A stretch of DNA of 64,000 bases from Antedon mediterranea (taxonomy: Eukaryota; Animalia; Echinodermata), in NCBI RefSeq assembly GCF_964355755.1, contig NC_092671.1, forward strand, positions 25,866,070-25,930,069. Direction: 5' to 3'. The stretch's first letter is position 1, and each line of letters begins with the position of its first letter. Under the pieces are notes generated by a model. It made no database searches. It was not told the DNA's origin and was given only the letters and a program-made list of their open reading frames with translations. A program made the position numbers and the translations under genes. This document shows positions 5,660 to 63,697 of this stretch, in pieces.

Positions 5660-6487
5660 CTACATGTGGCGTTTCATGTGAAGAGACAAATGATCAGAAC
5701 GAGAGAAAGCTCGTTCGCATAGATGGCACTGGAAAGGTCGATCACCAGTGTGTTTACGATAATGCCTGGTTAGCTCATCAGATCGTGCAAACTTCCAGCC
5801 ACATCCTTTCCAGTTGCAAGCATAAGGTTTTTCTCCTGTGTGCGTTCGGAGATGAGCTTTCAGGTGCGAGCTCTTTGTGTAGGTCTTGTTACAGCCTGGG
5901 TGTGAACATGTATGTGTCGTTGTTCTTTTCCTTCCCCATGTTCTGCGCTCTTTCCTTCGGTTCACCTGTAGATTCTGAAGTGGTTGTGACGTCAGAACAC
6001 TTTCATTTGAAGAGTTGATGAGCAGGTCCATGAGTGGTGAAGTTGGAATAGAAACAGTCAAATGTGTAAGGTCAGAGGGTGCAAAAACATTATCCATATC
6101 TGACCGCATAAGTGGACTGTGCGGTTCCTGTTTTATCGCCATGCCCATTGATGAATCGTCAATATAACGTTTCTGTTGATCTGCGTTAGAATTGTTCAAG
6201 ATAAAGTCCAAGTCGAGCAAATTATCGTAGCAGTCCGCAATGGATGATGCGGGTGGGGACGAACGCATACTCGACGAACAGTCACTGACCGATGCTAGGC
6301 TGTTTGGTGAACATGTCTCTGTGCGTTGTTGACCTACCATGCTGTGATCCCAGTCGTGTAATAGCGACTCAACATCATTTAAAACCTGTGAGGGTAAAAC
6401 ATACGGAGGTTGATAAGTCATTTGTGGCATATAAATCCTCGGCACATAATAATATGGTGTTTCCCCGCAGTAATAGTGGTAAGCCAT
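5660..6487 (-). CDS. Klf2/4: Kruppel-like factor KLF1/2/4 group, full-length copy 1 (275 aa, intronless)
   Basis: Three C-terminal C2H2 fingers (C-x4-[25 protein letters not shown]). [14 protein letters not shown] matches KLF2/4 [25 protein letters not shown]2/4 activation motif and IKQE SUMO consensus. ATG at 6487 in GAAATGG context with an in-frame stop upstream at 6536-6538. Confidence 0.93.
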
Positions 6488-7770
6488 TTCTATACGTCCC
6501 CGCACTACGATTTTTTCAAACAGAATTTGTGATTGCTAAAGCCTTGTTGGAATTTAAGGTACAGGTGAATCATTGAATTATCATATAATTTGCGGACCAT
6601 GACCGAAGCACTTCCGCTTCGATCTATTCGACGAAAATCAAAAAAGGATAACTATTTTCTGCTTTATACTTAATTTAATGTAATGGTGATCTAATAACAG
6701 GCGTAACAACACATAATACATATTGTAGTTTAATACTGGCTTAAATATTTTTGTTTTATATAAACTGTATTCTAAAAAATGACAATTTAGAACTTAATTT
6801 TGCAATAGTACCTAATTTGGCGCCTTAAACGCCAAGTTAAGTGCGGTACCTCATTTGGCAGTGGTACCTCATTTGGCGTGACACTCCTACTGTTCTGTAT
6901 CCCGTTTGTCTTAATTTCCAAGTAAAAATGAGTTACCACCACGTAACTCCTTATGATTAGGCCTATTATCATAGAAGAGTACTATACGGACGTCGTACCT
7001 GGAAATCACGAGAATTCAGTGTTTGTTGACCAATCATTTTTTAAAGAGCCGTATCTGACCATTGCATTGCCCTGTCTGTAAAATTACAGCAGGCCTACTT
7101 TATATTATTGTGTTTTCCCTGTTTATCGATACCATGAAGGAAAACGTTTTTGTTCAATCAGAAAATTTTGCGAGATTTTTTTAATGGATATTATAATTTA
7201 TAGTTACAGTTAGTCACCTGATTTTTGTGGCAAATCATTAATAGTTTTGACATTGTTAGGGTTAGGGACTATAAGACAGATTTTGGTTGCATGATTGTGG
7301 AAAACCATCAATGTGGGTTTTTCTTCATACAAGCTACAGCCAAAATATAATAGGGGTATATATTTTTTCAAAGTCATCGTCAAACGCTGAGAGTCAATAC
7401 AGTATTTCAAACGCATTCTTTCACCTCTAATTGCTCACATTTAATTAATAATATACTGAAATAAATTCGAGAAAACATTAACTTATTGTGTTTTGTTTTA
7501 TTTATTGATCGTTGTTTATCGTTTGTAAACCACAGAAAACCACAACTATAAAGAATAAAACATAAATTCACAAAATGCAACAAATTAATACAGTATTTGC
7601 GAGTGCAATCATGAAACATTAATATTATAAGTACTTTATCGAAACATATAAACATAATTGTGCAGATAATAGCACGTTGATATAAAATTCGTTCTATTTA
7701 CAAGGAATTCATTTAATATTTAAATTTATTTCAAACGAGTTTTATCCGGAAGATTCGGTAATTGAGTTGT

Positions 7771-8598
7771 CTACATGTGGCGTTTCATGTGAAGAGACAA
7801 ATGATCAGAACGAGAGAAAGCTCGTTCGCATAGATGGCACTGGAAAGGTCGATCACCAGTGTGTTTACGATAATGCCTGGTTAGCTCATCAGATCGTGCA
7901 AACTTCCAGCCACATCCTTTCCAGTTGCAAGCATAAGGTTTTTCTCCTGTGTGCGTTCGGAGATGAGCTTTCAGGTGCGAGCTCTTTGTGTAGGTCTTGT
8001 TACAGCCTGGGTGTGAACATGTATGTGTCGTTGTTCTTTTCCTTCCCCATGTTCTGCGCTCTTTCCTTCGGTTCACCTGTAGATTCTGAAGTGGTTGTGA
8101 CGTCAGAACACTTTCATTTGAAGAGTTGATGAGCAGGTCCATGAGTGGTGAAGTTGGAATAGAAACAGTCAAATGTGTAAGGTCAGAGGGTGCAAAAACA
8201 TTATCCATATCTGACCGCATAAGTGGACTGTGCGGTTCCTGTTTTATCGCCATGCCCATTGATGAATCGTCAATATAACGTTTCTGTTGATCTGCGTTAG
8301 AATTGTTCAAGATAAAGTCCAAGTCGAGCAAATTATCGTAGCAGTCCGCAATGGATGATGCGGGTGGGGACGAACGCATACTCGACGAACAGTCACTGAC
8401 CGATGCTAGGCTGTTTGGTGAACATGTCTCTGTGCGTTGTTGACCTACCATGCTGTGATCCCAGTCGTGTAATAGCGACTCAACATCATTTAAAACCTGT
8501 GAGGGTAAAACATACGGAGGTTGATAAGTCATTTGTGGCATATAAATCCTCGGCACATAATAATATGGTGTTTCCCCGCAGTAATAGTGGTAAGCCAT
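7771..8598 (-). CDS. Klf2/4: KLF1/2/4-group factor, full-length copy 2
   Basis: Protein identical to copy 1. Confidence 0.92.
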
Positions 8599-60959: not shown

Positions 60960-61787
60960 CTACATGTGGCGTTTCATGTGAAGAGACAAATGATCAGAAC
61001 GAGAGAAAGCTCGTTCGCATAGATGGCACTGGAAAGGTCGATCACCAGTGTGTTTACGATAATGCCTGGTTAGCTCATCAGATCGTGCAAACTTCCAGCC
61101 ACATCCTTTCCAGTTGCAAGCATAAGGTTTTTCTCCTGTGTGCGTTCGGAGATGAGCTTTCAGGTGCGAGCTCTTTGTGTAGGTCTTGTTACAGCCTGGG
61201 TGTGAACATGTATGTGTCGTTGTTCTTTTCCTTCCCCATGTTCTGCGCTCTTTCCTTCGGTTCACCTGTAGATTCTGAAGTGGTTGTGACGAAAGAACAC
61301 TTTCATTTGAAGAGTTGATGAGCAGGTCCATGAGTGGTGAAGTTGGAATAGAAACAGTCAAATGTGTAAGGTCAGAGGGTGCAAAAACATTATCCATATC
61401 TGACCGCATAAGTGGACTGTGCGGTTCCTGTTTTATCGCCATGCCCATTGATGAATCGTCAATATAACGTTTCTGTTGATCTGCGTTAGAATTGTTCAAG
61501 ATAAAGTCCAAGTCGAGCAAATTATCGTAGCAGTCCGCAATGGATGATGCGGGTGGGGACGAACGCATACTCGACGAACAGTCACTGACCGATGCTAGGC
61601 TGTTTGGTGAACATGTCTCTGTGCGTTGTTTACCTACCATGCTGTGATCCCAGTCGTGTAATAGCGACTCAACATCATTTGAAACCTGTGAGGGTAAAAC
61701 ATACGGAGGTTGATAAGTCATTTGTGGCATATAAATCCTCGGCACATAATAATATGGTGTTTCCCCGCAGTAATAGTGGTAAGCCAT
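60960..61787 (-). CDS. Klf2/4: KLF1/2/4-group factor, full-length copy 12 (right-hand subtype)
   Basis: Protein identical to copy 9. Confidence 0.9.
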
Positions 61788-63460
61788 TTCTATACGTCCC
61801 CGCACTACGATTTTTTCAAACAGAATGTGTGATTGCTAAAGCCTTGTTGGAATTTAAGGTACAGGTGAATCATTGAATTATCATATAATTTGCGGACCAT
61901 GACCATGAGGCGTAACAACACATAATACATATTGTAGTTTAATACTGGCTTAAATATTTTTGTTTTATATAAACTGTATTCTAAAAAATAGTTCTTTTCT
62001 AATGAAGAATCTGGGAAGTTTACAATCAAGCAACAACACCACATTCTACGTGAATTCTGCTGTACGTGAACTAGCCTTAATACCGCCTGATTACGGTATA
62101 TAGGCCTATCAGTATTAGCTTCAGAATAAATGACGACGCATTTGTTGTACCTTGATAGACAGAGCCCCAAGCAGACAGCCCACATTACAGATAATCTGTT
62201 CTGCAGCACAATACAACTGTACACGCGGTGTGATTCAACTAAAAGCAGTAAAAAGATTTTGGCACACAAGGCGTATCATATAATTTGCGGACCATGACCG
62301 AAGCACTTCCGCTTCGATCTATTCGACGAAAATCAAAAAAGGATAACTATTTTCTGCTTTATACTTAATTTAATGTAATGGTGATCTAATAACAGGCGTA
62401 ACAACACATAATACATATTGTAGTTTAATACTGGCTTAAATATTTTTGTTTTATATAAACTGTATTCTAAAAAATGACAATTTAGAACTTAATTTTGCAA
62501 TAGTACCTAATTTGGCGCCTTAAACGCCAAATTAAGTGCGGTACCTCATTTGGCAGTGGTACCTCATTTGGCGTGACACTCCTACTGTTCTCTATCCCGT
62601 TTGTCTTAATTTCCAAGTAAAAATGAGGTACCACCACGTAACTCCTTATGATTAGGCCTATTATCATAGAAGAGTACTATACGGACGTCGTACCTGGAAA
62701 TCACGAGAATTCAGTGTTTGTTGACCAATCATTTTTTAAAGAGCCGTATCTGACCATTGCATTGCCCTGTCTGTAAAATTACAGCAGGCCTACTTTATAT
62801 TATTGTGTTTTCCCTGTTTATCGATACCATGAAGGAAAACGTTTTTGTTCAATCAGAAAACTTTGCGAGATTTTTTTTAATGGATATTATAATTTATAGT
62901 TAGTCACCTGATTTTTGTGGCAAATCATTAATAGTTTTGACATTGTTAGGGTTAGGGACTATAAGACAGATTTTGGTTGCATGATTGTGGAAAACCATCA
63001 ATGTGGGTTTTTCTTCATACAAGCTACAGCCAAAATATAATAGGGGTATATATTTTTTCAAAGTCATCGTCAAACTCTGAGAGTCAATACAGTATTTCAA
63101 ACGCATTCTTTCACCTCTAATTGCTCACATTTAATTAATAATATACTGAAATAAATTCGAGAAAACATTAACTTATTGTGTTTTGTTTTATTTATTGATC
63201 GTTGTTTATCGTTTGTAAACCACAGAAAACCACAACTATAAAGAATAAAACATAAATTCACAAAATGCAACAAATTAATACAGTATTTGCGAGTGCAATC
63301 ATGAAACATTAATATTATAAGTACTTTATCGAAACATATAAAAATAATTGTGCAGATAATAGCACGTTGATATAAAATTCGTTCTATTTACAAGGAATTC
63401 ATTTAATATTTAAATTTATTTCAAACGAGTTTTATCCGGAAGATTCGGTAATTGAGTTGT

Positions 63461-63697
63461 CTACATGTGGCGTTTCATGTGAAGAGACAAATGATCAGAA
63501 CGAGAGAAAGCTCGTTCGCATAGATGGCACTGGAAAGGTCGATCACCAGTGTGTTTACGATAATGCCTGGTTAGCTCATCAGATCGTGCAAACTTCCAGC
63601 CACATCCTTTCCAGTTGCAAGCATAAGGTTTTTCTCCTGTGTGCGTTCGGAGATGAGCTTTCAGGTGCGAGCTCTTTGTGTAGGTCTTGTTACAGCC
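63461..63697 (-). pseudogene. Start-less KLF zinc-finger remnant with a different deletion
   Basis: Junction acagcct|tgctaaagcc removes the ATG; minus strand reads TAG CAA GGC TGT..., so a stop lies just before the fingers. Confidence 0.85.

Follow-up and report, generated by a model that had tools for sequence, protein, structure and literature searches.

We found that a window of 64,000 nt from the crinoid Antedon mediterranea (NC_092671.1, positions 25,866,070 to 25,930,069 of the forward strand; all coordinates below count from its first letter) is occupied by a tandem array whose units carry part of the coding sequence of Klf2/4, a transcription factor gene of the KLF family. The reading we favour, with a probability of roughly 0.55, is that this array is a young and unstable amplicon of a Klf2/4 exon which drifts like satellite DNA and is probably pseudogenic. 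When one of the long open reading frames (ORFs) was compared with the window by BLAST, 30 matches were obtained, every one on the minus strand: 12 of 828–834 nt, 15 of 243 nt (each with the first 12 nt of the ORF ahead of it), 2 of 82 nt and 1 of 238 nt. The counts of 12 long copies, 15 mini copies and 3 fragments given by an earlier inspection of the letters alone (the sequence-only reading) hold in this comparison. Its description of the copies as head-to-tail and nearly identical is borne out as well: a self-comparison of the window returned no inverted match, which leaves a single orientation, and pairs of long ORFs differ by 0–6 nt in 828 (8 haplotypes). Three master pieces of 2112, 284 and 591 nt cover 63,914 of the 64,000 bases, and ORF-derived DNA makes up 22% of the window. 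The repeats extend to both window ends, so that the array (1–64000, minus strand, by master-piece mapping) continues past both of them and is not bounded at 5660 and 63697 as had been proposed. A macrosatellite consists of head-to-tail units of kilobase size over tens of kilobases or more; with at least 64 kb in one orientation the array falls under this definition.

The origin of the unit was deduced from protein comparisons. A search with residues 1–190 of the ORF gave 13 matches, of which P0001 (XP_071952453, the Klf2/4 protein of Antedon mediterranea, 340 aa and the single member of its cluster) was the best by far. The named matches are echinoderm KLF2, KLF4 or uncharacterized proteins and the members of their clusters are named Klf1/2/4, so that the assignment is one by name. 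By its sequence the array ORF is of the KLF1/2/4 family, but it is not a complete gene. Identity to P0001 begins at ORF residue 35, exactly after a CAG acceptor, and beyond this residue the window ORF lacks 74 aa of P0001 and otherwise differs from it at 4 of 241 positions. The first 34 codons are unlike P0001 or the N-termini of orthologues and end in a pyrimidine tract followed by this CAG, the most pyrimidine-rich of eight nearby AG sites; the first 25 aa of P0001, by comparison, start like the sea-urchin and sea-star orthologues. A tblastn search of the window with these 25 residues returned 0 matches, against 12 for a control peptide. No protein with the 34-aa N-terminus was found among the protein-search matches of the ORF, and of three proteins of the window none is on record. 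Sea-cucumber Klf1/2/4 predictions diverge at that same acceptor point into spliced forms (P0014, P0015) and read-through forms (P0002, P0017, P0018, P0019); the latter are unbroken across the three fingers, and P0002 and P0018 start at a chance ATG about 40 codons upstream. As a side result, the public sea-cucumber predictions P0002, P0010, P0017, P0018 and P0019 have false N-termini through intron read-through at this acceptor.

These comparisons suggest that echinoderm Klf2/4 is likely split by a phase-0 intron into a short exon 1 and a single long exon 2, and that the array unit likely runs from the last part of intron 1 through exon 2 into the 3′ flank of the crinoid gene. In copy 1, the likely last 184 nt of intron 1 occupy 6386–6569 (minus strand), where 34 read-through codons lead from an ATG at 6487 to the pyrimidine tract and the CAG acceptor, and the likely exon 2 with the three C2H2 fingers follows to the stop at 5660–6385 (minus strand). 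Because the intron end and the acceptor are kept, exon 1 is absent and exon 2 is natively unbroken in relatives, we regard the unit as an exon-2 fragment and not as a retrocopy. Retroposition is rejected on these grounds, and the proposal of an intronless gene in the sense of the DUX4 or Zfp352 retrogenes is not supported.

The basic cycle of about 2.6 kb reads B (284 nt), U2 (202 nt), P (91 nt), ORF (828 nt), 3′ segment, D, a 120-nt repeat-like piece, U2 and B. Around copy 1 the B spacer lies at 4184–4467 and the U2 spacer at 4467–4668 (both minus strand); about 38 and 63 copies of them, respectively, occur in the window, and together they form a tandem sub-repeat of 484 nt. The 3′ segment with flank D spans 4789–5659 (minus strand) and contains AATAAA 41 and 265 nt past the stop. 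The small repeat-like piece at 4669–4830, to which no strand applies, shows a perfect 14-nt inverted repeat (4749–4762 and 4814–4827) and a 13-nt hairpin (4698–4730), and short direct repeats are also found in the small element 4698–4827. The join that defines the array is seen in copy 1 at 6570–6578 (minus strand), where the end of U2 is connected to the intron-like DNA through a 9-nt filler. The letters of this filler repeat those of both flanks, a pattern which we take to be like the templated insertions of end-joining repair. The units are far from uniform: neighbouring ORF pieces lie 935–3970 nt apart, so that unit length varies fourfold, and only 3 of the 23 junction types in the window belong to the basic cycle. 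The later joins mostly show 0–4 nt of overlap or fillers of 3–20 nt, and about 20 joins recur 1–15 times inside higher-order repeats of 3.5–5.8 kb. One such pair, seen by self-comparison and without an assigned strand, lies within 28642–45745, where 28642–34213 equals 40163–45745 (5583 nt, 99.8%). The part of the window at 1–5659 contains spacer and 3′ pieces with zero ORF sequence and slightly higher divergence (96–98%), and it is perhaps near an edge of the array. The observed/expected CpG ratio is 1.02 for the whole window and 0.84 in the ORF, with no sign of long-term methylation loss.

All 12 long ORFs encode 275–277 aa without stops, carry three C2H2 fingers and match the SP/KLF triple-finger pattern (from PMC3820594). 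They had been called intact full-length copies; the reading frame is indeed open, but 25 aa at the start of P0001 and 74 aa within it have no counterpart. On the minus strand, ORF 1 (5660–6487, 275 aa) and ORF 2 (7771–8598) have the same sequence, and ORF 3 (9378–10205) carries H48Y and T247I, ORF 4 (11488–12315) Q253K and ORF 5 (15274–16101) T166A. In ORF 6 (18480–19307; E9K, T166A, S206N) the 3′ segment is deleted 9 nt past the stop. The 3′ segment is deleted as well in ORF 7 (21993–22826), which has 277 aa through an in-frame 6-nt duplication and carries S206N, and in ORF 8 (25351–26178; H48Y, G228R). ORFs 9–12 (48940–49767, 52644–53471, 58363–59190 and 60960–61787) form a right-hand haplotype with four private changes (L36S, Q53K, T166S and one silent change), and variants are in general shared hierarchically among neighbouring copies. 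The minis outnumber the long copies. Each of the 15, which are identical, has lost 573 nt in frame, so that an ORF of 84 aa is left; the lost stretch is not a splicing product, as its ends are not GT-AG. They are located, again on the minus strand, at 23680–23934, 27032–27286, 29285–29539, 30393–30647, 33449–33703, 34546–34800, 36568–36822, 37676–37930, 38784–39038, 40806–41060, 41914–42168, 44970–45224, 50621–50875, 54325–54579 and 56338–56592. In the mini protein finger 1 is without its first Cys, so that the triple-finger pattern is not matched, whereas fingers 2 and 3 are intact; compared with KLF-family structures the mini protein scored highest with KLF4 (157.7 bits) and reached 152.3 bits with KLF5. 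The splice acceptor is present in 12 of 12 full copies and in 0 of 15 minis. Two 5′ fragments of 82 nt (17545–17626 and 21058–21139) are broken ahead of the acceptor at the same point, and a finger-only fragment lies at 63461–63698 (all minus strand); the latter was ruled out as another finger-only ORF, since it has no in-frame ATG.

For evaluation of the array in other data we used sequencing runs. Parts of the unit are contained in 20 runs, in 8 of them with at least half of its words, and the contigs of 4 of the 20 (X1, X5, which may be an RNA run, X6 and X7) were compared. Runs of organisms B and C have shares of 0.2–0.3, and shares under 0.2 were disregarded. Such contigs show presence and not absence, and joins absent from them count neither for nor against expression. 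We observed the defining join of U2 to the intron (6578 to 4467) in three of the four runs, namely X1, X6 and X7 (3 samples, 2 studies). It was not found in X5, which runs into other sequence at 6569 and whose contigs also lack the join of the stop to the array 3′ segment; in X1 the ORF contig ends at 6569 and 5657. In X6 and X7 we found a 15-nt deletion and a 3-nt insertion which are not in the window. In X6, one unit measures about 1.5 kb; it retains the entire ORF and includes a join (5536 to 4466) that the window lacks. Because of these variants and this join, X6 and X7, which have no organism label, are independent of the window; X1 could be the source sample. X1, X6, X7 and the window differ in their joins and alleles, which shows that the tandem expansion varies between individuals. 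In X6 the depth was 325 on the array-type 3′ contig and 14.5 on the other 3′ contig, and in X1 about 700 on the ORF; such ratios hint at many copies but are no copy numbers, and X6 and X7 comprise only 2.6–2.7 Mb of contigs each. The depth of X7 peaks at the fingers, which may result from target capture. As the defining join recurs in X1, X6 and X7, the array, a multi-kilobase tandem array with KLF1/2/4-type coding sequence as had been claimed, is real, and an assembly artefact, the case in which the sequence-only reading would have fallen, is unlikely.

The same runs bear on the borders of the unit and on its internal deletion. The array 3′ segment is joined to the stop at a point beyond which a different 3′ sequence is present as well in X5, X6 and X7; we infer that this shared sequence past the stop and the X5 sequence beyond 6569 are the native flanks. 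An 8-nt inverted motif is common to the two loose ends at the stop (5657–5659 in X5, X6 and X7). What the array lacks at its 3′ end (at least 549 nt in X5, provided that the two ends form a pair) may be a small mobile element. The in-frame 74-codon deletion relative to P0001 is joined in copy 1 at 6043–6046 (minus strand), where the overlapping contig ends of X5 point to 4 nt of microhomology. The lost 222 nt do not look like a splicing product either, their right end presumably being AA and not AG. In X5 the deleted form makes up about 798 of a depth of 945 (by bin arithmetic), and the copy that carries it has the residues of P0001 and ends other than those of the array. The deletion may be a native allele older than the array, and the native Klf2/4 of that species may carry it or segregate for it.

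Next, we analyzed the substitutions among the copies. The 12 ORFs contain 10 nonsynonymous and 2 synonymous distinct changes, which corresponds to a ratio of nonsynonymous to synonymous polymorphism (pN/pS) of 1.39. The probability of the 10:2 count is 0.50 at a selection ratio omega of 1, 0.14 at 0.5, 0.026 at 0.3 and 0.00006 at 0.1. The substitutions are compatible with neutrality, and omega values of 0.3 and lower are rejected. Four of the ORF changes fall on finger positions at which all 28 relatives whose domain is intact agree. In addition, all 12 copies share four amino-acid changes compared to P0001, two of them at columns otherwise invariant in an alignment of 10 rows; at these four sites the P0001 residue is found at 4 of 4 in X5 and at 2 of 4 in X6 and X7. 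The density of single-nucleotide polymorphisms (SNPs) in exon 2 is 0.87 per kb summed, within the range of five of the six non-coding parts (0.74–1.23), the sixth having 3.03. That none of the 12 SNPs creates a stop is unremarkable (chance 0.53), and two breakpoints destroy the ORF.

Taken together, we propose the following course of events. The Klf2/4 coding sequence in the unit starts at a splice-acceptor-like site and continues to the stop; the first 25 aa of the orthologue and 74 aa inside it are not encoded. A single end-joining event, which probably occurred at the native locus, would have fused the downstream flank U2 to intron 1 through the 9-nt filler and so produced the first copy in head-to-tail arrangement; a downstream flank joined back to the intron is expected from duplication in place or from a re-inserted circle. 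About 20 further joins with low or no homology followed and recur within the higher-order repeats, where deletions would create variants and unequal exchange would spread them. With neither exon 1 nor the native promoter, most copies are presumably silent or their products unselected, and the 275-aa frame would be open mainly through the youth of the copies and a chance in-frame ATG in the intron. That the array is pseudogenic is probable in view of the majority of minis without acceptor, the breaks that destroy the ORF and the retroelement tail that lies within the unit.

Several observations weigh against this course of events. That the duplication took place at the native gene is inferred. 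Around the start codon, position −3 is a purine and +4 a G; together with a TATAAA about 181 nt upstream and an AATAAA downstream, this context would permit a transcript. With only 12 changes, an omega of 0.5 is not rejected (P = 0.14), and a functional array of redundant copies would be expected to vary almost neutrally as well. Small frameshifting indels number 0 in 14.2 kb of ORF, compared with 2.4–4.4 expected from the flanks (P = 0.013–0.095; the expectation comes from 19 events de-duplicated by hand). Among the array-type indels listed that keep start and stop, 4 of 4 are in frame (6, 573, 15 and 3 nt), which gives P = 0.012 at a chance of 1/3, and 0.10 when the two destroying breaks are counted. 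Over their 255 nt the 15 minis do not vary at a single site, whereas about 620 nt of flank contain 7 variable sites. Finally, the 74-codon deletion is no proof of decay, dominant as it is in X5 on a non-array copy.

The main alternative, which we consider unlikely, is that the array is a new gene family of the type of Sdic in Drosophila melanogaster. Here U2 with its TATA-like site would have come to lie ahead of the intron end, and the intronic ATG would serve as the start codon of the transcribed copies; the long copies would be a KLF with a new 34-aa N-terminus, the minis an 84-aa finger-only competitor for native Klf2/4 sites, and the output of Klf2/4 would be tuned by copy number. Fingers 2 and 3 are enough for recognition of the KLF4 site, so that the mini protein, if made, would act as a competitor. 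We regard with the same reserve the wider idea of a gene birth from an exon, in which the ratio of re-headed KLF to finger-only competitor would tune a pluripotency-type KLF in the germ line, the embryo or the regenerating arm. The in-frame bias of the ORF indels, the full ORF retained in the divergent 1.5-kb unit of X6, the strong start context with TATA-like and poly(A) sites and the invariance of the minis, which keep fingers 2 and 3, agree with such a family, and Sdic is a precedent (PMC7475035). The substitutions, however, look neutral even at invariant finger residues, and three out-of-frame ATGs lie 86–113 nt upstream of the start. Moreover, the mini join is listed in 0 of the 4 runs compared, whose contigs can attest presence only, and chance in-frame intronic ATGs also occur in the sea-cucumber read-through predictions. 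Capture of the exon by a rolling-circle or other DNA element, which would have amplified it in tandem and possibly off the native locus, is improbable. It would account for the short inverted repeats and the hairpin at 4698–4827 and for the way in which the small piece, U2 and B break up into numerous variant contigs with loose ends when the runs are compared, as dispersed repeats do. On the other hand, D sits on single long unbroken contigs (X1, X5) like a locus-specific flank, the unit ends vary freely with no respect for element ends, and there is no ORF of transposase or Rep-helicase size among the 36 ORFs of at least 100 aa.

Still less probable is that the copies serve as alternative last exons downstream of the native gene, whose exon 1 would splice to any of the 12 acceptors and yield a Klf2/4 without the 74 aa. 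The acceptor retained in all 12 long copies, a head-to-tail geometry consistent with duplication in place and the abundance of the deleted form in X5 fit this idea. Yet X5 has the P0001 residues and not those of the array, the minis expanded despite the loss of the acceptor, and the poly(A) signals after each copy would presumably end transcription early. We consider it highly improbable that the array is a retrogene macrosatellite like DUX4/D4Z4 that acts at zygotic genome activation (ZGA) or in the germ line. Kilobase-sized head-to-tail units each with a transcription factor ORF do resemble it, orangutan DUX4 arrays also mix complete and incomplete units (PMC13558733), and a KLF (KLF18) acts at ZGA in mammals (PMC13224869). 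Its origin is largely refuted, given that the unit is no retrocopy (intron end retained, exon 1 missing); the substitutions give no sign of strong purifying selection (omega of 0.3 or lower), and unit length varies fourfold. The burst transcription at ZGA suggested by the sequence-only reading has no support in these substitutions. Least probable of all is an assembly artefact. Copies with more than 99% identity would invite it; against it, the defining join was found in three of the four runs, two of them with variants not in the window, the variants are shared hierarchically by neighbours, and the longest exact repeat in the window is 3808 nt, below the length of a long read.

The exon amplicon can be compared with several known systems. 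With native Klf2/4 (P0001) it shares the same three fingers, with 4 residue differences over 241 shared aa; the array copies differ in that the first 25 aa are exchanged for 34 read-through codons, the 74 aa are lacking and 30 pieces stand in tandem. A tandem KLF array as such is not new, although the sequence-only reading knew of no described KLF macrosatellite: at least 20 tandem copies of KLF18 are predicted in guinea pig, 6 in rabbit (tandem) and 4 in rat (PMC3820594). Those copies are likewise recent and highly similar, with a function that is unproven in that source. They are mammalian, KLF17-derived and predicted as whole genes, whereas here a KLF1/2/4 exon fragment is amplified in an invertebrate and accompanied by finger-only minis. 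KLF18 belongs to the DUX4 network, and its repeats lie inside the protein (PMC13224869). Zfp352/Zfp353 are also KLF-derived with a coding region without intron, but according to PMC3820594 they are retrotransposed, have early-embryo expression data and a low copy number. D4Z4/DUX4 and mouse Dux resemble the array in their kilobase-sized head-to-tail units with a transcription factor ORF, in their higher-order repeats and in the mixture of complete and incomplete units. They are described as retrotransposed with units of about 3.3 kb, whereas the Klf unit has retained the end of an intron, contains no exon 1 and is of irregular build; where that work contrasts homogeneous arrays with heterogeneous pseudo-arrays, the Klf array is nearer to the latter (PMC13558733). 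Sdic is the closest known system in build (PMC7475035). It is a young segmental duplication fused by deletions whose coding sequence is untranslated in the parent, and it shows tandem expansion, copy-number variation and inserted retroelement pieces. In the Klf array, too, we found at the level of the sequence a partial duplication with joins and a putative coding start in DNA untranslated in the parent. The two differ in that Sdic fuses two genes and has expression, function and selection shown (same source), while here one gene is involved, with more copies and far more irregular units. By its structure, then, the Klf array is a partial-duplication tandem amplicon. No expansion of echinoderm Klf2/4 was found in the accessible parts of PMC4558859, PMC7661307 and PMC11374967, and no crinoid or echinoderm Klf array in the literature searched, which included few subscription papers and no supplements.

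Further pieces of the window were inspected. The 5′-truncated tail of a retroelement without long terminal repeats (non-LTR) is inserted in U2 at 16290–16880 (minus strand), with a short target duplication and a TTA-type tail. A second copy at 19895–20393 (minus strand) stems from the 3.5-kb higher-order duplication and has its tail deleted. The nearest Atlas clusters score 0.93–0.94, one of them named reverse transcriptase, and we presume the element to be an L2. It is in frame with a spacer ORF, so that chance ORFs of 265 and 331 aa result. The spacer ORFs of 105–202 aa were rejected as genes: they vary with the joins, the one scanned (202 aa) has no Pfam match, and we treat them as chance. 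An Rfam scan of 4100–6900 gave 0 matches at E up to 0.1. A search for KLF-consensus sites in the master unit returned only one, and because it lies within the ORF there is no case for autoregulation.

If the array is silent, it would be a natural case of the coding exon of a developmental regulator becoming satellite-like DNA. It would then also be an annotation trap, as ORF callers would give a dozen 'intronless KLF genes', and RNA, read-depth and knock-down work on crinoid Klf2/4 would be confounded. The array-specific joins and alleles make a test of expression cheap. If the copies are expressed, the array would be an invertebrate, exon-derived counterpart of the Sdic or DUX arrays; it would bring its own finger-only competitor and vary between individuals of a strongly regenerating animal.

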